Source: an uncultured Phycisphaerales bacterium (lineage in GTDB: Bacteria > Planctomycetota > Phycisphaerae > Tepidisphaerales > Tepidisphaeraceae). Taken from it: a stretch of 64,000 bases of DNA. Shown here one piece after another: positions 29,539 to 64,000 of the stretch. The position numbers were made by a program, and so were the translations under genes. The stretch covers positions 960,001 through 1,024,000 of the forward strand of contig CAVWVQ010000003.1 in assembly GCA_963758525.1 (NCBI GenBank), given 5' to 3'. The notes under the pieces were generated by a model. It ran no database searches, was not told the DNA's origin, and was given only the letters and a program-made list of their open reading frames with translations. The stretch's first letter is position 1, and the number at the start of each line of letters is the position of its first letter.

Positions 29539-29569
29539 AAAAAAGCCGACGGACCAATGTCCGTCGGCT
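29539..29569 (-). terminator. Intrinsic terminator of the PA2169-family gene
   Basis: Minus strand AGCCGACGGAC-ATTG-GTCCGTCGGCT followed by a T-run, about 30 nt after the stop. Confidence 0.75.
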
Positions 29570-29596
29570 CATTGTTCTCAACACGACCCTGCGGCG

Positions 29597-30040: not shown

Positions 30041-30562
30041 AACGATCACACTCCTTCAGAGCCGGCTTCAGAGCGGCTCTTACTGGTTGTCAATCTGCCC
30101 CCTTGCGTTGTGGTTGAGGTCGCACAACTCGTGCCGGTTGAGCAGGAAAACGCGCGGGAACATTCAAAAAGGTCAACGTCCGCAAACGAGCTCCTCCGCA
30201 TTCATTTGCCGCAAGGCAGGCTCAGGAACGCCCTGAGGTATCCGATGGGCCGAGAAGCTGGCCTCGCAAATAATTGGCGTTCTTCGAAACGGGAGGTACT
30301 CGCCACGACGCGGAAATCTGTCCGATGGCGAAAAACCGTCGCCCACTTCGACGATCTGTCGGTCGCGTCGAATGCCGGGCAGAGGCTCGGGCCCGTCCGC
30401 AAACGGCTGGGCGGTCGGGGGTTCGTTGTAGCGGATTGAATGGATCAATTCCCGCGGATTGCAATCCGTTGGCTTTGGGAGATTTCGGAAGCGGGTTTCA
30501 TGCGGCTTCAGGCGAAGCGTGCAGGCTGGAAGCGTTTGGCACAATGTTCTATCTTGCTGGCC

Positions 30563-31528: not shown

Positions 31529-31820
31529 AATATCGGACCCGCGCTGTGGGAGAAAGCGGCGTGGGCGAATTTCCGGGGGAGCAGGAGCAACTGTTTTGCA
31601 CGGCAGATCTGCAGGCTGGAAGCCCGCACCACGATGTGTGTCGCCCGAAATTCGCCCACTCCCACATAAAGCGTGCCAACGGCAAGTCCGAACACTGATG
31701 GTACCGCGCGTGTACTGTCTAACAGCGTGAGTCTCCAGACGTAACAGAGCAGAAGTGGAAAGGGGGCAACCGTCCCGGCGCAACTGGCGCCTGTTATCGC
31801 AAGCATTAGAAAATAAAGCC

Positions 31821-33128: not shown

Positions 33129-33276
33129 CAATCCCCGGTGCGTCAAAACGTCGCTTTGCCCAGTTCCGACGAGGCAACTATATTGCGTGTCTGCCAAAAT
33201 CCGACCGCACGGCGCAAAAGGTACGACCGCCAGACTCCGAAATAGAAGCAGTAGTTCTTACTGATAAGGTGAATTC

Positions 33277-34629: not shown

Positions 34630-34660
34630 GCGTAACGAGTTTTGCAGTCTCAAATGCATC

Positions 34661-34686
34661 GGGCCCGGCGCACCCGCGCCGGGCCC
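34661..34686 (+). terminator. GC-rich hairpin after ugd
   Basis: GGGCCCGGCGC-ACCC-GCGCCGGGCCC perfect 11-bp stem; weak U-tract. Confidence 0.5.
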
Positions 34687-34745
34687 TGCTTCGTCTGACG
34701 CTTGACATTCAACGCCCTGCGAATAAAAGATATAGGCATTCCGCT

Positions 34746-34819
<74 letters not shown>

Positions 34820-34952
34820 TTGTGCCAGCAGGACTTACGTGAGGATCGCTATTCCTGACGTAGTAATGCCAGACCTTTCAGCTGATTTCGTCGTCGGCGA
34901 GACGCCGGCACGATTGATTTGTGCGTCGTCGCGGTGATCGCTTCGTCTCTGT

Positions 34953-36209
34953 TCATGTGTTCACCGCGCAGGTCTGCCTGTAGAAATCGACGAACTGAGG
35001 CAGGACCGCCTCAAGGCTGTATCGGTCGGCGATAATCTTTTCGGCGGTCCGTCCCAGGGGACGAAACGCAGCCGGATCTTTCAGCACCTTCACCGCTGCG
35101 GCCGCAAGCCCCTCGATGTCGAAGAAATTTCGCAGCAGGCCGTTCTCCCCGTCCCGGATCATTTCTGAGACGGGAGACGTATCAGAGCCGAGCACCACCG
35201 CGCCGCAGCTTAGCGCGTCCATCATGCTCCACGACAAGACAAACGGCACCGTCAGATAGATGTGCAGATCGGTTGCCGCGAGGAGCTGACTGAGCACGTG
35301 GGGCGCCAACATTCCAACGAACTTGAATTTCGTCAGGTCATATTCATCTCTCGACAACACCCATTCGCGAAAAGAAGCGGCGCCTCCGATGTGATTTTCG
35401 TCGCCGCCGTAGCAGATCCGGTCGCTGCCGACGACGAAGAACAGCACATCGGAATATTCTTTGGAAATGCGCTGTGCGGTTTTCATAAAGATGTCGAAGC
35501 CGCGCATGCTTTCGAAGCCGCGGCCGACATAGGTCACGATCCGGGTGGAAGCCGGCACGGAAACGCCCAGAATTTCGCGCGTCGCACGCGTTGCGGGAGC
35601 CGGCCGAAGTTGCTCATCGTGGCCGTGGTAAATCGCGCGGTCGATGCCGTCAAAAATCACGCGCAGCTTGGAGCGGTACTCGGAGGGAAATCGCGAGAGT
35701 TGAAACTGCGTCGGCGTATATCCAGCGTCGCAATTTTGAAGATCAAGCAAAATCATCGCATTGCGGGCACGAGCCCGATGAAGGTGCGCATCTGGCAGAG
35801 GCCAGCCGAGGTCGCGTCGAAACCCCATATCGCAGTCCCGGCCCGACGTGTGGTAATAAAACTCGAAGAGATTGATGACGGGAACGTTCGGATATAGTTC
35901 GCGCAAAAACAGGCTGCTTCCAAACCCGCTGTGAGCCACAATCAGATCCGGCTTCACATCCGGCCGAATCCTGAGTGACTGATAAACGCCATCGCAATTC
36001 CAGATCGCATTTTCAAACGTGCGCGAGCAAAAGTGATTGCGATTGGTTGCGCCTCCGGCAACGCGATAAACAATGCGCTCCATCCCGCCCGCGTTCCCCC
36101 CGGCGGCCGCCGTTGCGAAGGTGATCTTCCAGCCATGCTCCCCCGCAAGACGCTGGCCGATGTGTCCGAATTGCGCGGGGAAGTTTGGGTGGATGTAGAG
36201 AACGTGCAT
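34953..36209 (-). CDS. Family 4 glycosyltransferase (Glyco_trans_4_3-type N-terminus)
   Basis: HPNFPAQFGH, PDLIVAHSGFG, RGFESMRGF, YLTVPFVLSWSMMDALSCGA, IRDGENGLL. Confidence 0.9.
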   Translation of the reverse strand: MHVLYIHPNFPAQFGHIGQRLAGEHGWKITFATAAAGGNAGGMERIVYRVAGGATNRNHFCSRTFENAIWNCDGVYQSLRIRPDVKPDLIVAHSGFGSSLFLRELYPNVPVINLFEFYYHTSGRDCDMGFRRDLGWPLPDAHLHRARARNAMILLDLQNCDAGYTPTQFQLSRFPSEYRSKLRVIFDGIDRAIYHGHDEQLRPAPATRATREILGVSVPASTRIVTYVGRGFESMRGFDIFMKTAQRISKEYSDVLFFVVGSDRICYGGDENHIGGAASFREWVLSRDEYDLTKFKFVGMLAPHVLSQLLAATDLHIYLTVPFVLSWSMMDALSCGAVVLGSDTSPVSEMIRDGENGLLRNFFDIEGLAAAAVKVLKDPAAFRPLGRTAEKIIADRYSLEAVLPQFVDFYRQTCAVNT

Positions 36210-36226
36210 TGGATCCCTCGGGACTA

Positions 36227-36390
36227 AGAGCCGCGAAGGCGCGAAGCCGCGAAGACAGAAGCGAAGCGGGGGGAGCAAAAATATGTGGCGCCAAGATGGG
36301 CGAGACGCCCGAAAGGAAGTGTTTGCTTATCTATTATCTGCAACATATTCATTCGCTTCAGTCTTCGCTCCTTCGCGTCTTCGCGGCTCT
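36227..36390. repeat. Inverted-repeat element built from 8-nt GCGAAG-core units
   Basis: AGAGCCGCGAAGGCGCGAAGCCGCGAAGACAGAAGCGAA pairs with TTCGCTTCAGTCTTCGCTCCTTCGCGTCTTCGCGGCTCT around an AT-rich spacer. Confidence 0.75.
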
Positions 36391-36703
36391 CTATTTCCGA
36401 ACCTGCGGATACCCGCAATTATTCGCTTGATTTCAATGCGCCCGATCTTATATTCCACCACCTTGCGTGGCGAGGCAATGGGGTCTCGTCGCCGCAGTGC
36501 TTCTCATCTCGCAAATCTTTTCTTCGAATGGGCTGTGTCGGCGCTCAGCGGGGATCGGAGGGTACCATCCAGCAGGTCGGATGGCGTGTGCCTTAGCTGC
36601 CGGCGAGGCCGCGAGAGTCGTTGCGATCCTCCGCTAGGACCTGCTGCACTTACGGGCAGGCTCCGCTCCCGAAAAACAATTGAGACAGGCGAAGGAGAGG
36701 ACT

Positions 36704-36882
36704 ATGCGGAGCACCGAGAAGCGTTCAAGCAAGCGAACGGCACGAAAACGTGCATATTTTCAAATTCAAGCACTCGAGGCCCGACTGATGCTTTCCGTCG
36801 CGGCCCACTCGGCGGTCACTGCGGCGATACGAACTTCACCACCAGCACCTCGGGGACGCTGAGCCAGACGGTGACGTCATAA
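36704..36882 (+). pseudogene. Internally deleted paralog of the downstream leader/Ig-like surface protein
   Basis: GGAGAGG RBS + MRSTEK...QALEARLMLS leader joined out of frame to a 62-bp 3' end (36821-36882) that matches 39325-39386 at 56/62 positions, including the stop. Confidence 0.8.
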
Positions 36883-36985
36883 ACATCGTGGACTGCGGGC
36901 CACGGATTGAACTCAGATCGGTCGGCATGCACGCATTCATGGTCGCACTTGGGAACCACGGATGCATCAGACAGGAGCTCCAGCC

Positions 36986-39386
36986 ATGGGAATTCTATCG
37001 CGATCCTGGCGTCGTCGATTAAAGTTGGCGTCGCCTCAAGAGGCACCCTCTTCCAAGCTCTTCGCCGCGGCACGGCACACGGTCGAGCGGTTGGAGTCGC
37101 GCCTGCTGTTGAGCGCAACAACATGGACGAACGCCGCAGGCGGCGACTTCGACACGATTGGGAACTGGAGCAACGGCGTTCCCGCCGCGGGTGTGCATGC
37201 AGTCATCGATATCGCCGTCAGCGCCTCCGATCACCAAGACGACAACTTCCACCGATACCTTCGCCGGCCTGACGTCCCATGATCCGATGGTCCTTTCGGC
37301 CGGCACGCTGAATGTCACGGGCGCAGTTTCGGAGATTGGCAGCGCGCTGACCCTCAGCGGCGGTGCGCTTCAATACAGCACCCTCCTCTTGAACTCCGAT
37401 ACCGTCAACGGCCCCGGCACCCTCACCAATCCTGCGGGCAGCACGCTCACAATTCAGAATCCGACGATCAATGCCCCGCTGATTAACAATGGCACGCTCG
37501 ATGTGATCGGCGTGAACAACTCCATCAACGGGGGATTGACCACGGCGAAGACTTCCGTGATCAATCTCGCCGACAACGACCTCAACTACCACTCGTATTT
37601 GACCGTCGGAACCAGCTTCACTAACAACGGCGCGATCAACCTCGTGAACAACTCCGCCAACATCCACCTGCCAGCGCTGACGGTCGTTGGCACGCTGACC
37701 AATGCATCGGGAGCCACCATCACCGCCAGCGGCGCCACGGGCAGCACAAGCTCCGCCAGCAGCGCCAAGATCACTGGCGGCCTGGCCAATGCCGGCACGA
37801 TCACCGTCTCCGAGGTGCGGGGGCTGACGGTCAACACCAACGGTTACGGCGGTTCCAATAGCGGAGCGATCAACGTTACCGGCGGACCGCTGACACTGAA
37901 CGAGGACGCCGATGCTTTCACGAACACTGGCTCGATCGCCGTTGCATCCGGCCAGACCCTTGACGTCCACTCCGGGACATTCGATCAGAACGCCGGCTCC
38001 ATCGGCGGCGCTGGATCGATCGTGACTTTCGATTCCGGCACTCTGAACCTCGGAACAAGTCTGAACAACGCATCGGCGTCGCTGGGCATCGACGTTGAAA
38101 CCGTCGACGGCCCCGGCACGCTCACCAACGCAGCGGGAAAGACGCTGACGTTGATCGTGGACACCATCAATGCCCCCTTGGTTAACCAGGGCACACTCGA
38201 AGTAGCTGAGGACGAAAGCTTTATCAACGGCGGATTGACCACCGCGACGTCCTCTGTCATCAACATCGCCGCCAGCAACGCCGACTTTCACACGTCCCCG
38301 GAACTGGCCGTTGGAACCAGCTTCACCAACAACGGCACGATCAACCTGATTGATGACAACACCGACTTCGGTTACCCCGCTCTGACGGTGAACGGCACGT
38401 TGACCAATGCCGCGGCGGCCAGCATCGTCGTTAGCGGGGCTGGCGGCAGTTTCTCGTCTGGGCCGCAGATCACCGGCTCATTGATCAACGCCGGCACCCT
38501 CACGCTCACCGTCGAGCCGGGACTGGTGATCGACGGCAATTTCACTCAGTTAAGCACCGGCGCTGTCAACACCCGGATCACCGGAGGAACCCCAATAGAC
38601 CTCAGGGTTCAAGGCAGCGCCAGCTTTGGCGGATCCCTGGGCATCGTCTTCAGCAATGGCTTTGTTCCCACGGCCGGTGAATCCTTCACGGTCATGAGTT
38701 ATGGTTCCACCACCGGCTCGCTGACCCTGATCAACCCCACCGGATTTGTCCTTACTGGCCAATACAACGCCAGGAGCCTGGACGTCACAGTTCACGCATC
38801 GACCCGGACCGCGTTGACCAAGAGCACGACCGCTCCCAGCACCTTCGGACAACGCGTGACGTTGACGGCCACGCTCGTCCCGATCATCTCTGGCGCGGGA
38901 ACCCCCACCGGATCTGTCATGTTCAAAGATGGATCCACTGTTCTCGGCACCAGCGCCCTCCACAACGGCATCGCCACCTTGACGACCACGGCATTCCCCA
39001 CCGGCAGCAACTCGATCACCGCTGTGTACGGCGGCAACAGCAGGTTCGTTGCCAGCACCTCCAGTTCACTCACGCAGACGGTCACTCCGTCGGCCACGAC
39101 CACCACGTTGACCAAAAATACCACCGGCGCCGTCAAGTTTGGCACGAGCGTGACGTTCACGGCGGCGCTCGCGGCAGTCAGCCCTGGCGCTGGTACGCCG
39201 ACCGGCACGGTTACCTTCATGGACGGATCGACCACGCTGGGAACCGGCACGCTCAGCGGCGGCGGCGCGACGTTCACCACTGCCGCGCTGGCGATAGGCA
39301 GTCATTCGGTCAAGGCCGTCTACAGCGGCGACGCGAACTTCACCACCAGCACGTCGGGGACGCTGAGCCAGACCGTGACCTCGTAA
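36986..39386 (+). CDS. Surface protein with planctomycete leader, passenger-like beta-repeat region and two Ig-like (Big_3-type) domains (apparent frameshift near 37221)
   Basis: ERLESRLLLS leader, W...GNWSNGVP, duplicated ~230-aa TLTN-rich unit, two FG..VT.TA....PTG.V.F.DGST.LGT...A.Y.G.....STS domains; AGGAG RBS. Confidence 0.85.
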
Positions 39387-39395
39387 TGTGAGACC

Positions 39396-40531
39396 TTGAA
39401 GTTACGACTACCTCAAATCATCAGGGCGGAGAATGACATCCTCTTTGACGAAGAGGATCATCAGGTCGTTGATTTGTTTTCTGCCAACGGGACGACCTGG
39501 CTGGGGCATTGCAATCCAGCCGTTACGGCAGCGGTGACCGCGCAATTGCAGCAGGTTTGGATCACCGGCGGTCTGCCTTCGGGGATTTACGCGGAAGCGA
39601 AATCGCTGATAGAAACCTTCTTCCCGTCTTCGCATTCGGTCGCCGGTTTGTATTCAACCGGAATGGAAGCGGCGGAGTTTGCAATTCGCATCGGACGGTC
39701 GACGACAGGGCGGAACGAAATCGTCGGCTTTGAAAGAAGCATGCACGGGAAGTCGATGGCGACAGCCCATCTCGGCTGGGACAACCGCGACGGCCTGAAT
39801 GCGCCGTGGCTGCATCGCCTGCCGTTCATTCACGGTCAAACTGAAGAGCAGGTCTTGCGGCGATTGGAACAAACCCTCGAAGGCGGTTCGGTGGCGGCGG
39901 TGTTCGTGGAGCAAATGCAGGCGACGGGCGGCGGCCATATGGCATCGCGGCGGTTCTATGAGGAGACGATACGGCTCTGCCGTTTGCATGGCGCGCTGAC
40001 GGTGTTCGACGAAATCCTTACCGGGTTCCACCGAACAGGAATGGCGTTTTTGTTCTGCGAGCTTTGTACGATGCCGGACATCGTGCTGATCGGAAAAGCG
40101 ATGGGGAATGGTTTTCCCGTCTCCGGGGTGGTGGTCCGGCGGGACATCGCCATCACCCCAGGGATGCTGCCGGGCAGTACCTTTGCGGGCAATCCCCTGG
40201 CGGCGGCGGCGGTCACAGGGACGCTGAAGCAGATGAAGCGATTAGATCTTCCGGGGATGGTCGCGGCGATCGAGCAAATCATCGTCGAGAATCTGACCGA
40301 AGTGCGGGATCTGGGAATCGCCCTTCGCGGCCAGGGAGCGATGTGGATTATGGAACTCGCTGAGTCAATGGACGCGGAGGCGATCGTTGCGAACATTTAC
40401 CGTCGGGCGCATTTGTCAGTTTTGCCGGGCGATTCATCCGAATCCTTCCCGCGGCAACGATCCGAGCGGACAACCTGGCGAACGCGTGCCGCACGGTGAA
40501 GGAGGAACTGTTGAAAGCTTCGCAAACATGA
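39396..40531 (+). CDS. Class III PLP-dependent aminotransferase (apparent frameshift near 40407)
   Basis: LGHCNP, TGMEA, HGKS, FDEILTGFHRTG, PDIVLIGKAMGNGFP, STFAGNPL; one added G gives a C-terminus FIRILPAAT...ELLKASQT ending in an ATGA overlap. Confidence 0.88.
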
Positions 40532-41673
40532 ATGAGGCAGACGCAAATCCGCCGAAGCTGCTGTTCGTTATATCCAACGACTTCGGGGAACTGTCCGGCG
40601 CGCTCTACTTCACACTGGGGGGAACGTTCGATGTGACGTTGGCGTTGCCGCCTCGTCTCTTTGCCCTGCATGCCGAACATTTGCCGATTGCAGCGTTTCC
40701 GTATCAGACGATTCAGGACGTGCTGGCGCTTGCCGATCGCGATCGGCCTGATGTCGTGCTGCTATTCTCGGGCTATCTATTCGCGGCCAACAACCTATTC
40801 AGCCTCGAAGCATTGCGAATGCTCGTAAGGCAATTCCGCGAAAGGGGCGTTCGCATCGTCACCAGCGATCCCTTTCTGGGGCTGATGGCGTACCCGAACG
40901 CCTCGGTCTTTAGCGATGAGCATCCGAAGAAAGCGCTTCTGCTGGAGCATTTTCGAAGTGTGGCCGAGACGATGCGCGGCATCGTTCATCTGTATCCCGC
41001 CGATGTTCGGACCGCGTTAAGTCATGCCGGCCATTCATTTTTTAACGAACACGTCGTCCTCACGGCCGCGGAACGGGCCGAATTCGAGGCCCGGCTGGGT
41101 CGCCGGTTGTCGCTGCGTCCTGGGAGAAAGCGATGGATGTTTGTGTTGTCTGCCGAGGACTATGGCCTTCAGATCGGGCTTCACGGACGGCAGGCGTTTG
41201 ATGACCTGCTGTTGGGCAAGATACAGGAGACGGCCCGTGCCGGAAGGCAACCGATATTGGTCGCGCCCAAGGTCTGCATAGACTCGGTCGCTCGGGCCGC
41301 CGGGACGGTTGACAGCGCGATCTTTCTCCCTTTCTGCCAATATGACTTGTTCCAAATGCTGGTTCTCGAGGCGGAATACCTTTTCTACTGGAATGTCTTT
41401 TCCTATTCGATTCTGGCACGGGTGGCCAACGGTTTTCCGGTCCTCGTCTTCGATAGCGGACACATCGCGCGCGCCGTGCCGCCGCTGCATCGGCTGGGGC
41501 TGCAAACATACTACCTCAACGCGCCGATCCCATATGTTGAGCCGGCGCGTGAACTGGACGAGCGGGCGCTTGCCGCGCTGGCGGATGCGCAGAAGTGTCC
41601 ATTGGCACAATCGATCGCAGCACTTCGCAAGCTGCCGGCTCCCGCGCAGGTGATTCGGGAGATTCTGATCTGA
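40528..41673 (+). CDS. Hypothetical protein, possibly GT-B-like fold
   Basis: 381-aa ORF translationally coupled on both sides (ATGA, TGATG); N-terminal KLLFVIS strand, DRPDVVLLFSG, GFPVLVF. Confidence 0.75.
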   Translation: MNEADANPPKLLFVISNDFGELSGALYFTLGGTFDVTLALPPRLFALHAEHLPIAAFPYQTIQDVLALADRDRPDVVLLFSGYLFAANNLFSLEALRMLVRQFRERGVRIVTSDPFLGLMAYPNASVFSDEHPKKALLLEHFRSVAETMRGIVHLYPADVRTALSHAGHSFFNEHVVLTAAERAEFEARLGRRLSLRPGRKRWMFVLSAEDYGLQIGLHGRQAFDDLLLGKIQETARAGRQPILVAPKVCIDSVARAAGTVDSAIFLPFCQYDLFQMLVLEAEYLFYWNVFSYSILARVANGFPVLVFDSGHIARAVPPLHRLGLQTYYLNAPIPYVEPARELDERALAALADAQKCPLAQSIAALRKLPAPAQVIREILI

Positions 41674-42260
41674 TGCGTATCAAAATTCAGGTTGGCTCTT
41701 TGGAGCTGCTGCAATTTTCCTTGAAGGATACGCGGGAGTTGTATTGCGTCCGCAACCATGATTCAGTGCGCCGGTACATGTCGAACCCCGAGCCAATCCC
41801 GTACAAGTCGCACGCCCGATGGGTAAAAGCACAACTACTCTGCAACAGGAACTTTCTGCTGTTCCTTGTGCGAACAAGGCCTCAAGAGCGTGCCGTCGGC
41901 CTGACCCAACTGCGGATCGAGGGCGACACCGCCGAGATCGGGGTGATGTTTCGCGAAGCGTTCCGGCACCAGATGGCCGCCTATATCTCGACGGTGGCGA
42001 TGTTGCACCTGGCATTCGAACATTTGCAGCTGCGATGGATTGTCAGCTACGTCATCCCCTCGCATGGTGCGGCGATACGCTTTAACAAGAGCTTCGGCGC
42101 ATGGGAAGAAGAGTCTGATATTCCTGGGATGGTCAAGGTTCGCCTGAGCAAAGATCGATGCATACAAAACGAGAATTTCCGACGAGTTTTCGACCGAGTG
42201 AAGCATCGACTGCACGTAGGTACGGCCGACATCGCGAGTGCGGGCCTGGTACAGGCATAG
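41673..42260 (+). CDS. GNAT N-acetyltransferase (PseH/RimJ-like)
   Basis: VRNHDSVRRYM...I...SHARW, AEIGVMF, AFEHLQL, AAIRFNKSFG. Confidence 0.75.
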   Translation: MRIKIQVGSLELLQFSLKDTRELYCVRNHDSVRRYMSNPEPIPYKSHARWVKAQLLCNRNFLLFLVRTRPQERAVGLTQLRIEGDTAEIGVMFREAFRHQMAAYISTVAMLHLAFEHLQLRWIVSYVIPSHGAAIRFNKSFGAWEEESDIPGMVKVRLSKDRCIQNENFRRVFDRVKHRLHVGTADIASAGLVQA

Positions 42261-42331
42261 ACGAGAATTTTTGATCTGACACAGCGTCCGGGGCGATGCT
42301 GCGTCTACCTGAATCGGTTTGGATACGCCTC

Positions 42332-43441
42332 ATGAAGGTTTTCATTTTAACGCTAGGCACGAGAGGAGACCTGGAAACATTTCTGATTCTTGGGCGAGAA
42401 CTGAGACGCAGAGGCCACCGGGTTCTGATCGGGACGTCGTCATTTTATTCCGAGCGGATTGCCGCTTCGCGATTGGAATGGCTGCAAATTGGTAATGGAA
42501 CTGCGGAACAGATGCAGGCCGTTCTGCGTTCCATGGCGGTTCTGGACCACCCGAAGCGGCGAACCGAGACATTCATCCAGCAATGGGTCGCGCCGCAACT
42601 GAGGCAATCGATCCGGACGATTCAGCTCTACGCGGTTAACGCCGACTATTTCATCAGCAATTTGAAGATGCACGTGCCACGCAACACAGAAGTGGTTCCC
42701 GGCGCGTTCGTTACCTACGACGTACCGGAATCACTGCAGGATCTTGCGAAGCATGGCAGCCAGCGGCATGGGGGGCGGATTATTGACCTCGTCGCCATGA
42801 GCAAGCCGCTGATCGATCGCTCAAACGCCTGGGACGTCAGCTATCAGTTCACTGGGTTCTGGCTCGACGATCAGCCCCTGACGTGGATTCCTTCGGAACC
42901 GCTCTTGCGATTTCTTTCAGAGGGGTCGCCACCGGTCGTTTTTACTCTTGGCTCCATGGCGACTCTCGAAGTCAGCGGCTTGCCAGACACGGTGATCGAG
43001 ACGCTGCGTGTCGCAGGCGGACGCGGCGTCATTCTCGGCAATTTGGCGGGAGAAAAGCGAGGTTTCGCGTTCGGCAACACCATCTATTTTGAAGGAGAAA
43101 TTCCCTACCAGTGGCTCTTCCCGAAGGCTTGCGCCGTCGTCCACCATGGCGGAGTCGGAACCGTTGCAGCGGCGCTGCGCGCGGGTGTGCCTTCCGTGCT
43201 GCTGCCTCAGATTTCGGCACAGCAATATCTGGCTCGAGTATTGCTCGACGCCGGACTGGCGACAGGAGTCTTCGAGACTCGAGCATTGGACGCAAAGAAG
43301 CTGGGGGCATCAATCCGATTGGCGGTCACCGAAACGAAATACCAGGAGACCGCCAAAGCATGGCAGGCGGAGATCGTGCGGGATTGCGGCGTGCGCTCCG
43401 CCGCGGATCTGATCGAGGAGCATTGGAAGCAACTTCGGTAA
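42332..43441 (+). CDS. GT1-family glycosyltransferase (sterol/glycolipid/natural-product type)
   Basis: LGTRGD, LRRRGHRV, PPVVFTLGSM, PYQWLFPK..AVVHHGGVGTVAAALRAGVPSVLLP. Confidence 0.9.
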   Translation: MKVFILTLGTRGDLETFLILGRELRRRGHRVLIGTSSFYSERIAASRLEWLQIGNGTAEQMQAVLRSMAVLDHPKRRTETFIQQWVAPQLRQSIRTIQLYAVNADYFISNLKMHVPRNTEVVPGAFVTYDVPESLQDLAKHGSQRHGGRIIDLVAMSKPLIDRSNAWDVSYQFTGFWLDDQPLTWIPSEPLLRFLSEGSPPVVFTLGSMATLEVSGLPDTVIETLRVAGGRGVILGNLAGEKRGFAFGNTIYFEGEIPYQWLFPKACAVVHHGGVGTVAAALRAGVPSVLLPQISAQQYLARVLLDAGLATGVFETRALDAKKLGASIRLAVTETKYQETAKAWQAEIVRDCGVRSAADLIEEHWKQLR

Positions 43442-43457
43442 GAGGCGGTTTCATTAC

Positions 43458-43496
43458 CCCTCTCCCGGTACTCCGGGAGAGGGTCGAAGTGAGGGT
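43458..43496 (+). repeat. GTAC-centred dispersed palindromic repeat, copy 3
   Basis: CCCTCTCCCGGTACTCCGGGAGAGGGTCGAAGTGAGGGT just after the GT1 stop. Confidence 0.65.
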
Positions 43497-43675
43497 GCGT
43501 GGCTGCCACGGAATGTCCCGGAAATACCTTCACCACCGGTACCTGGTCTTCCATGACCCACGCTTCTTTGTCTGCGACCGTCACCGGCCTTCCAAGCTGG
43601 CGAATGTAGATTTTACAATAAATCGATCGCCCGGAAAAGTGTTCACGCCGCCTGGAATGTTCAGAGCTTACTTGC

Positions 43676-43703
43676 TTGATTTCGTCACCAATGAGCTTAT
43701 AAC
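43676..43703 (+). promoter_or_regulatory. Possible sigma-70 promoter of the giant gene
   Basis: TTGATT-16 nt-TATAAC in an AT-rich tract, 50 nt before the ATG; AAGGAGAGG RBS. Confidence 0.35.
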
Positions 43704-43753
43704 TATTTCTCACTTCATTTCTCATTTTTGCTCAGCAAGGAGAGGCGGGCGCG

Positions 43754-52700: not shown

Positions 52701-55700
52701 AGCAATCAACAGATTGATCACAACCTCTTCTATCGCAATACCACTGTCGCGATTTCGCTCGTCGGCGTCTCAAACGTAAGCATCGTCAACAACACCTTCT
52801 ATTCTCCGCTGGGTGACAACATCGACGTTTCCGGCGGCTCAAGCGACATCGAGATTCTCAACAATATTCTTTGGGCGCAGAGCGGCTACGACCTGAATGT
52901 CGCCGATGACAGCCACCTCGGATTTTTCAGCGATTACAATGACCTGTATTCCACCGGCGCCGGCAAGCTTGTCCACTACTATCAGGATTTCACCGACATC
53001 CTCGACTGGCAGGATGACGTCAACAAGTTTGATCTGCACTCGATTGGCGCGACGATTGTAAATCCCACCGCGGCCCAGCCGCAGTTCGCTGATCTGGCCG
53101 TTGACAACTACAATATCAATGCGCTGACTGGCGGGCTTCGATCGACCAGTCCCACAGTCGATGCCGGCTCGCCGATTGTCGACGACGGCGTGCCACTCGA
53201 TCGAACCAATCTTCTGTCCAACCCCGGCTTTGAGAGCGGCACCGCCAGTTGGACAATTAACAGTACGGGCGGTATCGGCGTATCGAACCCCACGCCCTTT
53301 GCCGGCATTAATGACTTTGCCTCCAACGGCAGCGCCACCACGTTCGCGCAGCAGACCATCGATCTGCTCGCGGCTGGGTATACCAGCACCCAATTGGCCA
53401 GCATTCAAGATGACGACGTGGTCTTCGGCGGGCGTATCCGCTGGAACAGCAATGTCGCCGGCGACGTCGGCAAGATTCAGGTCACATTCCTGAACAGCAG
53501 CAGCAGCCAGATCGGCACGCCGCTGATTGCCTCAGCGACAAATACTGTCGACCGGTGGGAACTGGTCGGCCTGCGCCAGGCAATCCCCGCGGGAACTCGA
53601 TACATCCAATATCGATTCGAAACCGATCGCTCGTCCGGCTCCAACAACAGCGCGTTCGACGGCGCTTTCATGAATGTCCTTGACAGTGGGGTCGGGGTGG
53701 GACAAGGCGCTTATGGAAATACCACGACAGAGGATGCCCAGGAGGTGGCGTCCACCGCGCCGCGAATCGCCCTGCGGTTCCCTGACCTCTACACCAATTG
53801 GGATCTGTCCGCGCCGCACACCATCCTCTGGGATACCTATAACAATGACGCGGCATCGCCCATCCGAATCGACGTCTATCAGGACACCACCAGCGGATCC
53901 ATGCTTTTGGCCAACGTCACTCCGTCAGCGCCGGATATCGGACAATATTCCTGGATCCCGCAGAACAGCGGGCTGACCGCCGGCACGACGAACCTGCGCA
54001 TACAGGTTTCACTTGTATCCAACTCAGCCGTCTACGACCGAAGCACCGAAGTCTTCGCCATCCCCCAAAGCGGCACGACTTATTATGTCAACGATGCCAG
54101 CACCAGCGGTGACGTTTACACCACCGCCGTCGGTTCCAACCGAAACACCGGCAAACTCCCCACCGCGCCGCTCCCGCTTCTGTCAACGCTCCTGCGAACC
54201 TATGGCCTGGGGCCGAGCAACGTCGTCGATATCGATACGGGTACCTACAACGACTTCAATCCGATTGTCTTCGATGCCGCCGACGATGCGGGCGTAACAA
54301 TCACCGGCCCAACCAGCGCCAGTCACGTCGCATCGCTCAGCAGGGCCTATACCGGATCGGCCGGCACCGTCATCGACGTCAACGGCGCAGCGTCAATCAG
54401 CGTCTCCCATCTGACCCTGGTGGGTTCGCAGCGCGGCGTATGGGTTCATAACGGTGCGATCCGGTTCAACGGCGCGTATCTCACCACCTCCAACAACACC
54501 CTTGAAGGAATTCGCCTCGAATCGGACGCGACCGGGTCCACCCTGCAGAACCTTACCGTCTCCGGGAGCGGCGCCGGCGTCAGTAATTCGAACTCTGACG
54601 GGATTTACGTTGCCGCTCCCGGCGTTAGCGTCAACAACAGTCTTTCCTTCAACAACACCGGCGACGGAATCGACGTTGTGATCAGCACCACCTCGCCCAC
54701 GACCATCAGCAACAACACGGTGTATGGCAACAGCCAAAGCGGCATTTTCGCCAGCAATAGCTCCGCTACGCTCCTGACGATCGGCAATAATCTTGTCTAC
54801 AGCAACGGAAACTATGGAATTGCTGCTTCGAATGACGTGCTCGTCACTGGAAATGCCGTCTATGGTCAGTCCAACTCCAGCGCTGCCGGGATCTATATTT
54901 ATAATGACGCTAATGCAACCGGGAACGTCGTGTATCTGAACTACCGCGGCATCGTCGAGGGCAACGCCAGCGGCGCCCTGATCTCCGATAACCGCGTCTA
55001 CGCCAACTCGTCTATTGGCATCCTCTCGCAGAATGACACGGTGAGCGGAAACGTTGTTTATTCCAACGCGATCGGCATCTACGCCGGCTACTACTACGGC
55101 GGCGGCGCCGTGGAAAACAACCTTGACTACGCCAACAGCGCGGCTGCTCTGCAGATCACCAACAATTACGCCAGCTCCACCGGCGTTCAGGTGCTGAGCA
55201 ACACCTTCTACCAAACCGCTGGCGACGCCGTCGACGTGCTGGCCGGCGCCAACAGCGTCACCGTCCAGAACAACATCCTGCAGGTCAGCGCCGGCTACGA
55301 TCTCAACGTCGATCCCTCCAGCCAGGTCGGATTTGTCAGCGATTACAACGACTTCTACACAACCGGCGCCGGACAAGTGGGATACTGGCAGGGCGTGGCG
55401 CGGGCGTTGTTCGGCGACTGGCAGAACGCCTCCTTCACCGATCAAAATAGCTTGTCGGCCAACCCTCTGTTCGTGAAGCCGGCGGGCGCAAACCTGAAGC
55501 TCGGATATGTCGGCGGCGTTGACTACGGCTCCGATGACGATTTCCATCTGCAAAGCACCGCCGGCAGTCTGCACGGCGGGAGCCTCGCCCCGATACTGAG
55601 CGGCACGACCGGCCTGCCGATCGCCGCCACGGGGGCGCGGACCGCCGACTCCGCTGAATCGCCGGGCATCGACCGCGGCGCGACAAATTCTGCCTATTCC

Positions 55701-58700
55701 AGCGAACCGTCGCCCAACGGCAGTTTCATCAATCTGGGCTTCGAAGGAGATACCGCCCAGGCCTCGCTCAGCCCCGCGCAGTACGTCTCGCTCGTCACTC
55801 CCGATGGCGGCGAAACCTGGCCCGAGGGGCAGACCTTCACCATCCGCTGGCGCAGTGAGTCGACCGGCACATACAACATCGATCTGATGCAGGTCGGCAA
55901 CTCCACGCCAGTTCTCTCCATCGCCAAAAACGTGACCACCACAACCGACGAGGGCACCTTTGCCTGGGCGATTCCGACTACTGGTCTTACGCCTGCCAGC
56001 AACTATCTCGTTCGCGTTACCAAGGCCAGCAACAGTCTCACCGCTACCAGCATCCAGCCGTTTACGATCGGCGCGGTACAACACAATTATTACATTAACG
56101 ACAACTCGACTCTCGGCGATCAATACACCACCGCCGTCGGCAATAATGCAAACAGCGGATTGGACCCCGCTCATCCCAAGGCTTCCCTTCAAGCGCTCCT
56201 GCAGGCTTACAGCCTCGGCGCGGGCAACACGATCTACGTCGACACTGGCGTCTATGGTCTCACGTCAAACGTCGTGTTGTCCGCGACGAATAGTGGCGTA
56301 CACATCGTTGGGGCAACTACCAATGCTTCAGAGAGCGCCGGCTACAAGAGTTCCGTGCTGTCGAGCAGCCCGCTGGCGTACTACCGTCTGGGGGATGCGT
56401 CAGGGACGACGGCGGCGGATGCCTCGGGGCACAATCTCAAGGGAACGTATTCCTCTTCGGGCGTAACGCTGGGCAAGGCCGGGGTGCTGCCGACGGATCC
56501 GACGACGGCAGCGGCGTTTGATGGTTCGGGCGGCTCGGTTGCGCTGCCCTCGGGGTTTGCCAACCTGACCGGCGGGTTCAGCTTCGACGCCTGGATCTAT
56601 CCCACGTCCAGCGCCGGCAACCAGCAGATCTTCCAGTTGAGCAACGGGAACGGGCAGTCGGCCGGCTCCAGCGATCTGCACCTCAGTTATTACGGGGACA
56701 CGTACTACTACGGCAACACGTTGTACCTCACGCTCTATCAGGACGGGAGCAACCACCAGATCAGCGTGGGCAACGCCCTGACGCTGAACACCTGGCAGCA
56801 CGTGGCCTTCACGATCGACGCCTCGGGCAACGCCGTGATGTATGTCAACGGGCTGGCGGTCGCCGGCGGAGCGATGGCCCCGCTTGACAATCTCCCGCGC
56901 ACCCAGAACAGCCTGGCCTCGGGAACCGACGGGATTCCCTTCGCCGGGGAGATGCAGGAGGCGGCGTTGTACGGTTCGGCCCTCTCGGCCACGCAGCTGC
57001 GCGCCCATTACGACATCGCCACCGCCAAGGGAACGCTGCTGGACCGGGGCAACGCCTCGGCGGGCAGCTACGGCATCGAGCTGCAGAATGCCAGTAACGT
57101 CACGCTCGATCACCTGAACATCACCGGCGCGTACGACGCGGTGCATACCACCAGTTCGTCGCTGGCCGATGGCTCGGCGGGCCTGACGCTGACCAACTCG
57201 ACGCTCTTCGCCAACGCCGACGCCGGCCTGAACGTGGATCAGTATTCCACCGGGAGCACGCTGGGGACCGACACGGCGTACGGCCTGCCGGGCGGACCGA
57301 CCACCGCCGACGATCAGACTTACGGCTTCTACATCCAGGGCCAGGGCGCCGCCGTCAGCAGCAGCACCGCCTACGCCAGCAACACCTACGGCTTCTATGT
57401 CACCGGCGACGGCTCGACGCTGACCGGCAACACTGCCTATAACGACGCCAATGCGGGGATCTACCTCAGCGGCTCAGGCTCCTCGGCCACCGGCAATACC
57501 GTCCGCGGCAATGGCTACGGCATCCAAACCGACAACGGCGGAGCCCAGACCCTCACCGTCAGCGGCAACACCGTCTATAACAACGTCACCACCGGCATTC
57601 AGGGCAACAATAACGTTCTGATCACCGGCAATACCGTCTACGGCCAGAGCGGCGTCAACGCCAGCGGCATCTCCCTCACCAGCGGCGCCAAAGCCCTCTC
57701 CAACGTCGTCTACCTCAACTACAACGGCATCGTCGAAGCCAACGACAGCGGCGGCCTGATCCAGGGCAACCGGGTCTACGCCAACTCCAACGCCGGCATC
57801 TACTCGCAGAACGACACGGTGAATGCCAACACCGTCTATTCCAACGGGATCGGCATCTACGCCGGCTACTACTACGGCGGGGGCGTGGTGGAAAACAACC
57901 TCGACTACGCCAACAGCACCGCCGCCCTGCAGATCAGCGGCAACAGTGGCAATCCAGGGAGTGGCGTGCAGGTGCTGAACAACACCTTCTATCAGATCGT
58001 CGGCGACGCCATCGATGTGCTGGGCGGCGCCAGCAGCACCAACATCCAGAACAACATCCTGCAGGTCAACGCCGGATACGACCTCAACGTCGATCCCTCC
58101 AGCCAGGTTGGATTCACCAGCGACTACAACGATCTGTTCACGAGCGGTTCAGGCCAGGTGGCGCGGTGGCAGGGGACGGCGTATGCCACGCTCGCCGGCT
58201 GGTTCTATGCGGCCAACCACGACGGCGACAGCCTGAGCCTCGATCCGTTATTCGTCAAACCTGCCGGGAATGACGGGCTGCTGGGGTATGTCAACAACGC
58301 CGATGACGGGCAGGACGACAACTTCCATCTGCAAAGCAGTTCGCCGGCCATCGACGAGGGGAATCCCAACAGCTACTGGCTGAGCGAACCGATTCCCTCC
58401 GGCGGGCGGGTCAATCTGGGTTACGACGGGGGCACCTCCGCGGCCGCCGTCAGCGCTTCCCAGACTCTGCAGGTGGTCTCGCCCGACGGCCCGGCCAAGC
58501 TGCTGGCGGGACAGACCTACACGATCAACTGGCGTTCCAGCGGACTGCTCAAGACCAATACCGTCGCCCTGATCAACGCCGGCGGCGGAACCATCGACGG
58601 CGGGACCGCGGGCGTGTGGCTGGGCAATCAGTTCCTGACCAGTGCTCCCAACACAACCAATACCGGCTCGTTCACCACGGCGGTTGATACCAGCGGCGTG

Positions 58701-61700
58701 ACCAACCCCGCCCCGCAGGGCGTCTACCAGAACTACATTTACGCCAACGGCAGCTATGGCAGCAGCAACGACTCCCTCTCCTGGTCGCTGCCGGTGCCCA
58801 ACGGGACGTACACGATCCGCCTGCACTTTGCCGACCCCTACGCCACCGCCGCCAACCAGCGGGTCTTTGACGTGCAACTGCAGGGGGCGACGGTCAAGAG
58901 GGGCTATGACATCTACGCCGCCGCCGGCGCCGCCGACAAGGCGGCCACGCTTTCCTACACCGTTACCGCCAGCGGAGGGACGGGAATCAACCTCTCCCTG
59001 GTGGGGGACGCTTCAAACCAAAACTGGGGGCCGCTCATCTCCGGGATCGAGCTGAGCGCCGCCAATGCCGCCGGCGGCGTCACCAGCCCCAAGGTCAATC
59101 TCCAGTACTCGGGCAACGGCGGAAGCAGCTGGTCGACGATCGCCAGCAATCTGACCATGGACCGCTTCGGCCGCGGAAGCTACGCCTGGACAATTCCCAC
59201 GGCCATCGCTTCGGGCAATTACCTCATCCGCGTGGTCTCCACCGATTATCCGACGATCAGCGGAACTTCCCTCACTCCCCTGCAGATCGCCGCCGCGAGC
59301 CACAGCTATTACGTCAATGACAACTCGACTCTGGGCGATCAATACACCACCGCCGTCGGCAATAATGCCAACGACGGCAAGACCCCCGCCACCCCCATGG
59401 CCAGCCTCGCCGCCCTCATCAGCGCCTACCACCCCGGCGCCGGCGACACGATTTACGTTGACACCGGCGTCTACAACTTCTCGTCGAACTTCATCCTGAC
59501 CGCCCAGGACAGCGGCGTGCATATCGTGGGCGCGACGATCAGCGCTTCGGAAAGCGCCGCCTACAAGAGTTCGGTGCTGTCGAGCAGCCCGCTGGCGTAC
59601 TACCGTCTGGGGGATGCGTCAGGGACGACGGCGGCGGATGCCTCGGGGCACAATCTCAAGGGAACGTATTCCTCTTCGGGCGTAACGCTGGGCAAGGCCG
59701 GGGTGCTGCCGACGGATCCGACGACGGCAGCGGCGTTTGATGGTTCGGGCGGCTCGGTTGCGCTGCCCTCGGGGTTTGCCAACCTGACCGGCGGGTTCAG
59801 CTTCGACGCATGGATCTATCCCACGTCCAGCGCCGGCAACCAGCAGATCTTCCAGTTGAGCAACGGGAACGGGCAGTCGGCCGGCTCCAGCGATCTGCAC
59901 CTCAGTTATTACGGGGACACGTACTACTACGGCAACCAGTTGTATCTCACGCTCTATCAGGACGGGAGCAACCACCAGATCAGCGTGGGCAACGCCCTGA
60001 CGCTGAACACCTGGCAGCACGTGGCCTTCACGATCGACGCCTCGGGCAACGCCGTGATGTATGTCAACGGGCTGGCGGTCGCCGGCGGAGCGATGGCCCC
60101 GCTTGACAATCTCCCGCGCACCCAGAACAGCCTGGCCTCGGGAACCGACGGGATTCCCTTCGCCGGGGAGATGCAGGAGGCGGCGTTGTACGGTTCGGCC
60201 CTCTCGGCCACGCAGCTGCGCGCCCATTACGACATCGCCACCGCCAAGGGAACGCTGCTGGACCGGGGCAACGCCTCGGCGGGCAGCTACGGCATCGAGC
60301 TGCAGAATGCCAGTAACGTCACGCTCGATCACCTGAACATCACCGGCGCGTACGACGCGGTGCATACCACCAGTTCGTCGCTGGCCGATGGCTCGGCGGG
60401 CCTGACGCTGACCAACTCGACGCTCTTCGCCAACGCCGACGCCGGCCTGAACGTGGATCAGTATTCCACCGGGAGCACGCTGGGGACCGACACGGCGTAC
60501 GGCCTGCCGGGCGGACCGACCACCGCCGACGATCAGACTTACGGCTTCTACATCCAGGGCCAGGGCGCCGCCGTCAGCAGCAGCACCGCCTACGCCAGCA
60601 ACACCTACGGCTTCTATGTCACCGGCGACGGCTCGACGCTGACCGGCAACACTGCCTATAACGACGCCAATGCGGGGATCTACCTCAGCGGCTCAGGCTC
60701 CTCGGCCACCGGCAATACCGTCCGCGGCAATGGCTACGGCATCCAAACCGACAACGGCGGAGCCCAGACCCTCACCGTCAGCGGCAACACCGTCTATAAC
60801 AACGTCACCACCGGCATTCAGGGCAACAATAACGTTCTGATCACCGGCAATACCGTCTACGGCCAGAGCGGCGTCAACGCCAGCGGCATCTCCCTCACCA
60901 GCGGCGCCAAAGCCCTCTCCAACGTCGTCTACCTCAACTACAACGGCATCGTCGAAGCCAACGACAGCGGCGGCCTGATCCAGGGCAACCGGGTCTACGC
61001 CAACTCCAACGCCGGCATCTACTCGCAGAACGACACGGTGAATGCCAACACCGTCTATTCCAACGGGATCGGCATCTACGCCGGCTACTACTACGGCGGG
61101 GGCGTGGTGGAAAACAACCTCGACTACGCCAACAGCACCGCCGCCCTGCAGATCAGCGGCAACAGTGGCAATCCAGGGAGTGGCGTGCAGGTGCTGAACA
61201 ACACCTTCTATCAGATCGTCGGCGATGCCATCGATGTGCTGGGCGGCGCCAGCAGCACCAACATCCAGAACAACATCCTGCAGGTCAACGCCGGATACGA
61301 CCTCAACGTCGATCCCTCCAGCCAGGTTGGATTCACCAGCGACTACAACGACCTGTTCACGAGCGGTTCAGGCCAGGTGGCGCGGTGGCAGGGGACGGCG
61401 TATGCCACGCTCGCCGGCTGGTTCTATGCGGCCAACCACGACGGCGACAGCCTGAGCCTCGATCCGTTATTCGTCAAACCTGCCGGGAATGACGGGCTGC
61501 TGGGGTATGTCAACAACGCCGATGACGGGCAGGACGACAACTTCCATCTGCAAAGCAGTTCGCCGGCCATCGACGAGGGGAATCCCAACAGCTACTGGCT
61601 GAGCGAACCGATTCCCTCCGGCGGGCGGGTCAATCTGGGTTACGACGGGGGCACCTCCGCGGCCGCCGTCAGCGCTTCCCAGACTCTGCAGGTGGTCTCG

Positions 61701-64000
61701 CCCGACGGCCCGGCCAAGCTGCTGGCGGGACAGACCTACACGATCAACTGGCGTTCCAGCGGACTGCTCAAGACCAATACCGTCGCCCTGATCAACGCCG
61801 GCGGCGGAACCATCGACGGCGGGACCGCGGGCGTGTGGCTGGGCAATCAGTTCCTGACCAGTGCTCCCAACACAACCAATACCGGCTCGTTCACCACGGC
61901 GGTTGATACCAGCGGCGTGACCAACCCCGCCCCGCAGGGCGTCTACCAGAACTACATTTACGCCAACGGCAGCTATGGCAGCAGCAACGACTCCCTCTCC
62001 TGGTCGCTGCCGGTGCCCAATGGGACGTACACGATCCGCCTGCACTTTGCCGAACCGAGCGCCACCGCCGCCAACCAGCGGGTCTTTGACGTGCAACTGC
62101 AGGGGGCGACGGTCAAGAGCGGCTATGACATCTACGCCGCCGCCGGCGCCGCCGGCAAGGCGGCCACGCTTTCCTACACCGTTACCGCCAGCGGAGGGAC
62201 GGGAATCAACCTCTCCCTGGTGGGGGACGCTTCAAACCAAAACTGGGGGCCGCTCATCTCCGGGATCGAGCTGAGCGCCGCCAATGCCGCCGGCGGCGTC
62301 ACCAGCCCCAAGGTCAATCTCCAGTACTCGGGCAACGGCGGAAGCAGCTGGTCGACGATCGCCAGCAATCTGACCATGGACCGCTTCGGCCGCGGAAGCT
62401 ACGCCTGGACAATTCCCACGGCCATCGCTTCGGGCAATTACCTCATCCGCGTGGTCTCCACCGATTATCCGACGATCAGCGGAACTTCCCTCACTCCCCT
62501 GCAGATCGCCGCCGCGAGCCACAGCTATTACGTCAATGACAACTCGACTCTGGGCGATCAATACACCACCGCCGTCGGCAATAATGCCAACGACGGCAAG
62601 ACCCCCGCCACCCCCATGGCCAGCCTCGCCGCCCTCATCAGCGCCTACCACCCCGGCGCCGGCGACACGATTTACGTTGACACCGGCGTCTACAACTTCT
62701 CGTCGAACTTCATCCTGACCGCCCAGGACAGCGGCGTGCATATCGTGGGCGCGACGATCAGCGCTTCGGAAAGCGCCGCCTACAAGAGTTCGGTTCTGTC
62801 GAGCAGCCCGCTGGCGTACTACCGTCTGGGGGATGCGTCAGGGACGACGGCGGCGGATGCCTCGGGGCACAATCTCAAGGGAACGTATTCCTCTTCGGGC
62901 GTAACGCTGGGCAAGGCCGGGGTGCTGCCGACGGATCCGACGACGGCAGCGGCGTTTGATGGTTCGGGCGGCTCGGTTGCGCTGCCCTCGGGGTTTGCCA
63001 ACCTGACCGGCGGGTTCAGCTTCGACGCCTGGATCTATCCCACGTCCAGCGCCGGCAACCAGCAGATCTTCCAGTTGAGCAACGGGAACGGGCAGTCGGC
63101 CGGCTCCAGCGATCTGCACCTCAGTTATTACGGGGACACGTACTACTACGGCAACACGTTGTACCTCACGCTCTATCAGGACGGGAGCAACCACCAGATC
63201 AGCGTGGGCAACGCCCTGACGCTGAACACCTGGCAGCACGTGGCCTTCACGATCGACGCCTCGGGCAACGCCGTGATGTATGTCAACGGGCTGGCGGTCG
63301 CCGGCGGAGCGATGGCCCCGCTTGACAATCTCCCGCGCACCCAGAACAGCCTGGCCTCGGGAACCGACGGGATTCCCTTCGCCGGGGAGATGCAGGAGGC
63401 GGCGTTGTACGGTTCGGCCCTCTCGGCCACGCAGCTGCGCGCCCATTACGACATCGCCACCGCCAAGGGAACGCTGCTGGACCGGGGCAACGCCTCGGCG
63501 GGCAGCTACGGCATCGAGCTGCAGAATGCCAGTAACGTCACGCTCGATCACCTGAACATCACCGGCGCGTACGACGCGGTGCATACCACCAGTTCGTCGC
63601 TGGCCGATGGCTCGGCGGGCCTGACGCTGACCAACTCGACGCTCTTCGCCAACGCCGACGCCGGCCTGAACGTGGATCAGTATTCCACCGGGAGCACGCT
63701 GGGGACCGACACGGCGTACGGCCTGCCGGGCGGACCGACCACCGCCGACGATCAGACTTACGGCTTCTACATCCAGGGCCAGGGCGCCGCCGTCAGCAGC
63801 AGCACCGCCTACGCCAGCAACACCTACGGCTTCTATGTCACCGGCGACGGCTCGACGCTGACCGGCAACACTGCCTATAACGACGCCAATGCGGGGATCT
63901 ACCTCAGCGGCTCAGGCTCCTCGGCCACCGGCAATACCGTCCGCGGCAATGGCTACGGCATCCAAACCGACAACGGCGGAGCCCAGACCCTCACCGTCAG
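43754..64000 (+). CDS. Giant adhesin-like surface protein (at least ~6,700 aa, 3'-truncated): planctomycete leader, RTX-like repeats, propeller-like repeats, beta-helix units, FBA-like, LamG and malectin domains (apparent frameshift at 50948)
   Basis: EPLEDRFLLS leader; ORF 43754 reads sensibly to WAAL, then continues from 50949 (AGATSGSGVS...). The same frame holds at spot checks 53220, 54900, 56343 and 63960, and the ORF track lists no stop-terminated ORF in it. Confidence 0.88.
48930..49800 (+). repeat. RTX-like nonapeptide repeats with a 162-bp (54-aa) super-period
   Basis: AGxGx(N/D)xIx units; the GQGNN block recurs near 49223, 49385 and 49547. Confidence 0.8.
56343..64000 (+). repeat. 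Near-identical 3,219-bp intragenic tandem repeat (two full copies plus a partial third)
   Basis: Copies start at 56343, 59562 and 62781; shadow ORFs recur at exact 3,219-bp offsets (56381/59600/62819). Confidence 0.97.

Follow-up and report, generated by a model that had tools for sequence, protein, structure and literature searches.

A four-gene cassette in a 64,000-nt stretch of the genome of an uncultured Phycisphaerales bacterium (contig CAVWVQ010000003.1; hereafter the window, whose positions 1..64000 are used for all coordinates) lies between two genes for leader-bearing surface proteins, the second of them a giant. It encodes a class III aminotransferase, an unnamed 381-aa protein, a GNAT acetyltransferase and a GT1-type glycosyltransferase (GT). 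Genes for giant secreted proteins adjoin homologues of this cassette much more frequently than they adjoin host-matched control windows. Judged by its gene content, the cassette probably produces an N-acetylated amino sugar and transfers it to an acceptor of one kind or another. That it makes an acetamido sugar which decorates the neighbouring surface proteins, as an earlier note on this DNA had proposed, is a narrower reading to which we give even chances.

For the neighbourhood test, a giant was defined as an open frame of at least 1,000 aa (400 aa if cut by the end of the locus) with few K/R and many S/T/G/N residues. The control windows, taken from the host genomes, each surrounded another class III aminotransferase and were matched to genome-derived hosts only; 2 of the 40 were dropped as carriers of the cassette's own aminotransferase orthologue, and short ones fall out by the length rule. 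On the cassette side, L062 was swapped for an identical longer copy (L190), L186 was added and the window itself was left uncounted. Among loci with 5 kb of sequence on both sides, a giant lay within 5 kb at 5/10 cassette loci and at 0/28 controls (one-sided Fisher p = 5e-4; the giant rule was written after the loci had been viewed and the loci are partly non-independent, so the p value is indicative only). With looser thresholds 6/10 of these cassette loci were positive, and none of nine loci holding the unnamed protein without the cassette had a giant within this distance. Among loci of at least 8 kb the counts were 7/21 for the cassette and 1/36 for controls. In the present genome, 6% of the other bases lie within 5 kb of a frame that passes the rule. 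Two loci positive by eye were missed by it: L120, whose leader-bearing giant spans at least 6,800 codons, and L037, with the tail of a giant, DUF3467 and HlyD.

The adjoining giants carry the same leader type in seven loci (L036, L057, L108, L111, L118, L120 and L185). In each of four hosts NF012206 giants number only from one to about four, and one of them shares its contig with the cassette, at a distance of 0.2-9 kb. A giant followed by the cassette in the same direction was also seen in L049, L050 and L037; in L050 the cassette lies between a giant RTX-type gene and a SecA_DEAD/HlyD/Peptidase_M50/GAF module, and in L120 a tetratricopeptide repeat (TPR)-GT41 gene stands between giant and cassette. 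Four further loci were found later through the aminotransferase. One of them, the out-of-sample G1000, has a ~21-kb leader-bearing giant that ends 23 nt before the GT1 gene, and in G582 (identical to L062), G605 and G623 a PEP-CTERM-like gene overlaps the GT1 start (PEP-CTERM matches are weak in all three; G582 and G623 are closely related). On a quick tree the ten giant-adjacent rows all fall in one 30-row clade (support 86), where they are scattered and need nine changes; as far as such a tree can tell, the adjacency is therefore not one inherited arrangement. Separately, two open frames with LktA-type repeats, 13,046 codons long in G548:C214 and 10,259 in G554:C28, were noted directly beside the cassette, and in L064/L106:11-823 62 nt separate the cassette from the tail of a preceding HINT-domain protein, which may likewise be large and secreted.

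Together the four genes make up a conserved, recurring unit, rare among relatives and patchy across phyla. Around the unnamed protein we assembled 50 metagenome and 22 genome loci, 60 after near-copies were merged, many of them on short contigs. An aminotransferase orthologue is present in 33, a GT1 in 21 and both in 19, and one or both lie within 4 kb of the unnamed protein in 35/60; gene order within the cassette differs among loci. Recurrence of the four-gene group in other hosts makes it more than chance. The acetyltransferase is a GNAT in 11/60 loci, of the NeuD/PglB/VioB type in 13/60 and both in 0/60, a pattern that points to a putative amino-sugar substrate. The two folds known to acetylate 4-amino nucleoside diphosphate (NDP)-sugars are that of PseH/WecD (GNAT) and that of PglD (left-handed beta-helix) (PMC4363471; this and the other papers cited are drawn on in the portions available to us). 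Optional partners among the 60 loci are an APH-family kinase (8), an Asp/Asn beta-hydroxylase (8) and a short-chain dehydrogenase/reductase (SDR; 3), and rmlABC comes after the cassette in L049. No NeuB/PseI synthase or CMP-transferase was found among ~250 neighbour open reading frames (ORFs) scanned in Pfam, which are a subset of the ORFs and come in many cases from short contigs. The amino-sugar logic that the earlier note had read from a single locus is supported by a recurring unit with an exchangeable acetyltransferase.

Each cassette gene is single-copy in this genome. The unnamed protein was found in 0/140 other genomes of the order and in 0/400 sampled genomes of the phylum (with only four candidates scored per genome); the aminotransferase orthologue was found in 0/400 genomes of the class and in 5/401 and 3/398 genomes of two other orders. 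Plasmids gave no match. Matches to the unnamed protein came from metagenome-assembled genomes (MAGs) titled Solibacteraceae, Rhodospirillaceae, Gammaproteobacteria, Polyangiaceae and Omnitrophota, so the idea of a planctomycete-specific system is not supported. The cassette is mobile.

Of the four products, the aminotransferase matches PF00202 with 190.7 bits (cut-off 30.5), and its pyridoxal phosphate and catalytic-Lys motifs, FDEILTG and IGKAMG, align with GabT/AstC. It falls below the NCBIfam equivalogs (argD 164.8 against 410, GabT 153 against 507, scored on the frameshift-truncated protein) and belongs to a tight subfamily with at least 310 relatives at E<=1e-100. PF01041 (DegT/DnrJ/EryC1/StrS) gave no match at E<=0.01. 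Class III in place of the DegT/DnrJ type, to which the earlier note had drawn attention, is therefore confirmed; it has a precedent in NeoB and GenB1, ornithine-aminotransferase-like enzymes that aminate C6' of a sugar (PMC11420954). The GNAT has PseH (TIGR03585) as its best family at E 3e-9, with 37 bits where the cut-off is 93, and TIGR03585 was again the best family for four homologues (29-33 bits). The GT1 matches PF03033 and PF06722 (GT28_N/EryCIII_C) above cut-off, and its motifs GxRGD and HHGGxGT are conserved in 23 rows. The SdgA model scored 14.9 against a cut-off of 800 bits, and GT41 (PF13844), seen only in L120, was not found in the window's cassette. No strongly hydrophobic segment occurs in any of the four proteins (for the aminotransferase, the L035 homologue was assessed), so they are likely cytoplasmic.

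The unnamed protein, listed simply as unknown in the earlier note, still has no Pfam or NCBIfam family and had no match among PDB sequences; one search returned 35 homologues. A structure model can now be added. It is confident (predicted local distance difference test, pLDDT, 93.7), shows two Rossmann domains and matches GT-B enzymes over the whole chain. Its best structural matches are GT1 enzymes (Z 20.1, root-mean-square deviation 3.9-4.4 over 329-338 residues), with a Foldseek E of 3.5e-10 against solved structures. The protein is thus predicted to have a GT-B fold, and because that prediction is confident the cassette holds two candidate GTs, the GT1 and this one. In the model the conserved residues D18, G20 and E21 after strand 1 and a WNxxSNS motif would be compatible with GT activity, motif equivalence being our interpretation. 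DUF6365 was weakly matched by 4/36 members of the family (best E 0.0058), and Atlas placed the protein at 0.96 to a DUF6365 cluster that is mostly Actinomycetota. Six relatives are TPR fusions, two of which also carry a GT2. As an observation in its own right, L058, L060 and L112-L115 have the unnamed GT-B domain fused to TPR arrays, some with GT2 or radical SAM/SPASM; their clusters include GMC oxidoreductase, DegT and AMP-binding genes, and several of the genomes have two to four copies.

A number of observations weigh against decoration of the giants. In L035, the nearest relative (64-76% identity), the 8 kb upstream are free of giants, and the only leader gene there encodes 357 aa and lies 6 kb away, past methyltransferase, GT2 and membrane genes; the contig ends 169 nt after the GT1. 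Homology to L035 begins at 39388, and the 9-nt junction between the Ig-like gene and the cassette is for that reason local to this genome. Half of the both-flank loci (L114, L115, L190, L108 and L116) have no giant within 5 kb: in L108 one lies 7 kb away, outside the limit, and L116 has a 695-aa repeat protein and type I secretion. L114, L115, L073 and L113 are polysaccharide-type clusters, L059 faces polyketide synthase (PKS) and adenylation genes, and in L045, L051, L078 and L122 the neighbours on the side that was sequenced are unrelated. Against 72 leader motifs in this genome stands one cassette, and the other leader arrays have none. At the level of the enzymes, the closest solved relatives of the aminotransferase are GabT/ArgD, not sugar enzymes. 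Those of the GT1 are the sterol glucosyltransferase UGT51 and GtfA/B/D, which act on sterol and glycopeptide-antibiotic acceptors; its best NCBIfam match is Rgt, far below cut-off, and small acceptors are usual for GT1-type enzymes. The GT-B fold also covers epimerases and hydrolases, and a profile comparison of the unnamed protein with the GT1 found nothing (probability 1.8).

The cassette could instead tailor a lipid-linked surface glycan (glycolipid, lipopolysaccharide or capsule), the giants being genes that co-gather in hypervariable surface islands. Beyond the giant (L001:7728-20000, L002:1-3560) lie two methyltransferases, an AglJ/DPM-like GT2, the membrane protein LIC_10190, another methyltransferase and an ArnT/PMT-like GT-C, followed by Wzm/Wzt, a sulfotransferase and a GT2-GT4-methyltransferase fusion. 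A methyltransferase-GT2-membrane-methyltransferase set flanks the L035 cassette without a giant between; of the L035 flank genes, three share 74-90% identity, and one 29%, with genes that follow the giant in the present genome. Outer-clade relatives sit in GT2/GT4/DegT/Wzm-Wzt clusters, the GT1 resembles a sterol glucosyltransferase and the accessory hydroxylase weakly matches OlsC/LpxO. On the other hand, the cassette runs in the same direction as a surface gene, at gaps of 9-70 nt, in several unrelated hosts, relatives without the cassette have no giants (0/9) though they are in glycan clusters, and most loci of the cassette clade have no flippase or polymerase among their annotated neighbours. 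We regard this glycan explanation as somewhat unlikely.

If the cassette does act on surface proteins, a host dehydratase or oxidase would supply a keto or aldehydo NDP-sugar; this copy encodes none, and other cassette copies carry SDRs or rmlABC. The class III enzyme would aminate that sugar, a role usually filled by DegT/VioA/PseC, and the GNAT would acetylate the amine. Before export, the unnamed GT-B protein would put a first sugar on Ser/Thr of the unfolded giant, and the GT1 would then add the acetamido sugar. The unnamed protein was chosen as the protein-facing transferase because of the TPR fusions of its relatives. In a variant, the glycan would be assembled on a lipid carrier, and the GT2 and GT-C-like genes that lie beyond the giant would serve to transfer it. 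Alternatively, since class III sugar transaminases exist (NeoB, GenB1), the enzyme might aminate an oxidised C6 after sugar transfer. More speculatively, and with doubt outweighing belief, one may picture an undescribed, horizontally moving tailoring system for LEPR-XLL giants. The new GT-B family would prime Ser/Thr in the cytoplasm, or hydroxylated Asp/Asn where a beta-hydroxylase is present, class III would replace the DegT-type enzyme, a swappable acetylase, kinase, hydroxylase and reductase would make the decoration differ between strains, and subsequent export would be by SecA_DEAD/M50/HlyD.

The same enzymes could make or inactivate a small glycosylated metabolite, with aminoglycoside-like tailoring by aminotransferase, acetyltransferase, kinase and GT1. 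The kinase, beta-hydroxylase and SDR partners counted above would fit this, as would AMP-binding enzymes in L059, L078, L113 and L114 and the weak DUF6365 link of the unnamed protein with its mostly Actinomycetota cluster; NeoB/GenB1, which work with the kinase GenP, offer a precedent (PMC11420954). Yet PKS-type genes are adjacent only in L059, the annotated loci share no recurrent scaffold synthase or exporter, and the link to giant genes is left unexplained. A metabolite pathway is in our estimate improbable.

The gene order reported in the earlier note, from tRNA-Asp through the minus-strand GT4, the Ig-like gene and the cassette to the giant, was obtained again when the sequence was re-read and is listed in the table.

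Features of the window in the order of their positions
Feature	Position	Strand	Remark
tRNA-Asp	34745..34820	+	left edge of the genome-specific region; context, outside the cassette
GT4, family PF12000	34953..36209	-	profile match; lineage-wide gene, judged outside the cassette
Collapsed leader/Big_3_5 paralogue remnant	36704..36882	+	leader and last ~70 nt of tail
Leader-bearing (putative LEPR-XLL type) surface protein (Ig-like gene), two C-terminal Big_3_5 (PF16640) domains	36986..39386	+	
Class III aminotransferase, distinct subfamily	39396..40531	+	frameshift near 40403
Unnamed 381-aa protein, predicted GT-B fold, candidate glycosyltransferase	40528..41673	+	without Pfam/NCBIfam family
GNAT acetyltransferase, PseH-like below family cut-off	41673..42260	+	PF13302
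GT1-type glycosyltransferase	42332..43441	+	PF03033, PF06722
Giant leader-bearing surface protein, ~9,300 aa	43754..64000, continues to window-equivalent 71708	+	

The cassette indeed starts 9 nt past the Ig-like gene, whose stop is at 39386, with a TTG at 39396. Of the two overlaps that had been described, TGATG (41671-41675, joining the unnamed-protein and GNAT genes) stands as read, and ATGA (40528-40531, between the aminotransferase and unnamed-protein genes) holds only if a one-base frameshift near 40403 is read through. Between GNAT and GT1 there is no overlap but a gap of 71 nt up to the ATG at 42332. A scan for promoters and terminators gave counts at or below those of shuffles. Synteny with two same-genus genomes stops right past the upstream UDP-glucose dehydrogenase gene. 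Integration at the tRNA-Asp with an att repeat was considered and rejected, as no attR-like repeat was found.

One frameshift is present in each of three genes, those for the Ig-like protein (near 37215), the aminotransferase (near 40403) and the giant (near 50950). Because 13/97 orthologues of relatives' genes are likewise split in this assembly, these are probably assembly errors; the short pieces obtained from one DNA run cover none of the frameshift sites. The earlier note had counted two leader-bearing surface genes before the cassette; the Ig-like gene is confirmed, and the first is a 51-codon remnant (36704-36856): behind its leader come, in another frame, the final ~70 nt of a Big_3_5 tail that shares 88% identity with the end of the Ig-like gene. 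This suggests a deletion within a tandem array of three same-tail genes, or an assembly collapse. Such signs could mean that the cassette here arrived recently or is decaying, a passenger functionally unconnected with the surface genes on either side: its GC content at third codon positions (GC3) is 0.66-0.70, against 0.74-0.82 in flanking core and surface genes, its junction is absent from L035, a collapsed paralogue adjoins it and three genes are frameshifted. The frameshift rate equals the assembly background, however, three of the four cassette ORFs are intact and the same adjacency recurs in other hosts. The passenger explanation is very improbable.

The GT4, which the earlier note had taken as part of the system, was rejected as a member. 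PF12000 is present in 102/141 genomes of the order, mostly once (the tally includes one unpublished genome, G062), with no match in two same-genus genomes. Among 20 relatives examined (L084-L103) it adjoins an HTH_17-response regulator gene in 13 and has a giant nearby in only one; in the present genome that regulator is on another contig (C1:303591). No GT4 match was found in the 82 loci fetched around the unnamed protein or the aminotransferase. It would have no dedicated part in the mechanism, and its co-inheritance with the adhesin is likewise not upheld.

Both flanking proteins carry the LExRxLLS motif. The leader of the Ig-like gene passes NF012209 by 0.2 bit (17.2 against a cut-off of 17), and that of the giant scores 17.8 on PF07595 (cut-off 25.5). 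The giant is Ser/Thr/Asn-rich, as had been noted (S 11%, T 11-13.5%, N 7%, with G 12-13%), contains RTX Ca repeats, beta-helices, LamG, malectin and 20 Big_3_5 stretches, and stops 7.7 kb past the window end in the same Big_3_5-type tail as the Ig-like gene. Its part at ~56000-64000 has near-identical ~3.2-kb internal repeats (LamG, beta-helix and malectin units; both the translation and recurrent shadow ORFs reveal them), and ARAGORN called a probably spurious tRNA-Val within its ORF (54570-54662, minus strand). A SecA_DEAD/M50/HlyD module, possibly an export route for giants that would permit cytoplasmic glycosylation, is encoded in this genome away from the cassette, at G000:C3:3092704-3099092 (GAF-HlyD, M50-HlyD and a short SecA_DEAD), with no giant adjoining within the 20 kb examined. 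Elsewhere, a TPR and sulfotransferase gene split in two frames (G000:C3:4985745-4988040, L195) lies within a 50-kb tandem leader/Big_3_5 array and is a second candidate modifier of leader/Big_3_5 proteins.

Giant leader-bearing proteins are a major and almost unstudied share of planctomycete surfaces, and their modification becomes directly approachable through a compact, swappable cassette linked to them. Two of its enzymes are of note in themselves: one belongs to the unnamed GT-B family, the other to a class III aminotransferase subfamily whose substrates may be nucleotide sugars. We found no description of the four-gene cassette in the open-access passages searched. By analogy, it would work like adhesin-dedicated glycosylation, of which GtfA/B and HMW1C are examples, joined to a VioA/B- or PseC/H-like sugar module, yet it falls outside the membership thresholds of those families. 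Serine-rich repeat proteins are glycosylated by GtfA/GtfB with accessory Sec, or by SdgA/B. The likeness lies in cytoplasmic GT-B enzymes encoded beside a giant, Ser/Thr-rich surface protein, and in a second SecA-type export module at some cassette loci. Here, in contrast, GT1-type and unnamed-family GTs take the place of GT4, the cassette contains an amino-sugar module, the hosts are Gram-negative, the leader is of putative LEPR-XLL type and Ser is only 11%. Modules for 4-amino-4,6-dideoxy NDP-sugars (PseC/PseH, PglE/PglD, WecE/WecD, VioA/VioB) likewise pair an aminotransferase with an acetyltransferase that is a GNAT or a left-handed beta-helix. The cassette differs in its class III aminotransferase, not DegT, in a core without a dehydratase and in having no NeuB/PseI or cytidylyltransferase among its annotated neighbours.

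With NeoB/GenB1 the cassette would share ornithine-aminotransferase-like pyridoxal phosphate enzymes that act on sugars and, in some loci, a kinase partner; these two are absent from the 33 PDB matches at E<=1e-30 for the cassette subfamily, no aminocyclitol genes were seen and the context is one of surface proteins. The giant-gene preprint (10.1101/2023.11.21.568195) does not contain the words 'glycosyltransferase' or 'aminotransferase' in its available text. The SecA_DEAD/HlyD/Peptidase_M50/GAF export locus (PMC4452313) resembles the module that adjoins the cassette in L050 and the one encoded in this genome; here the module is not beside the cassette, and the available main text of that paper contains neither 'glycosyl' nor 'aminotransferase'. 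In Kuenenia, a planctomycete of a different class, the S-layer protein, also a different protein, bears a HexNAc-rich, methylated O-glycan (PMC5088730). Predicted operons of beta-hydroxylase, sulfotransferase and acetyltransferase have been proposed to modify co-encoded secreted Gly-rich proteins (PMC2938197). In the part of that paper available, no GT pair or class III aminotransferase is named with such substrates; like the cassette, these are mobile tailoring operons, and they share the beta-hydroxylase with 8/60 cassette loci.

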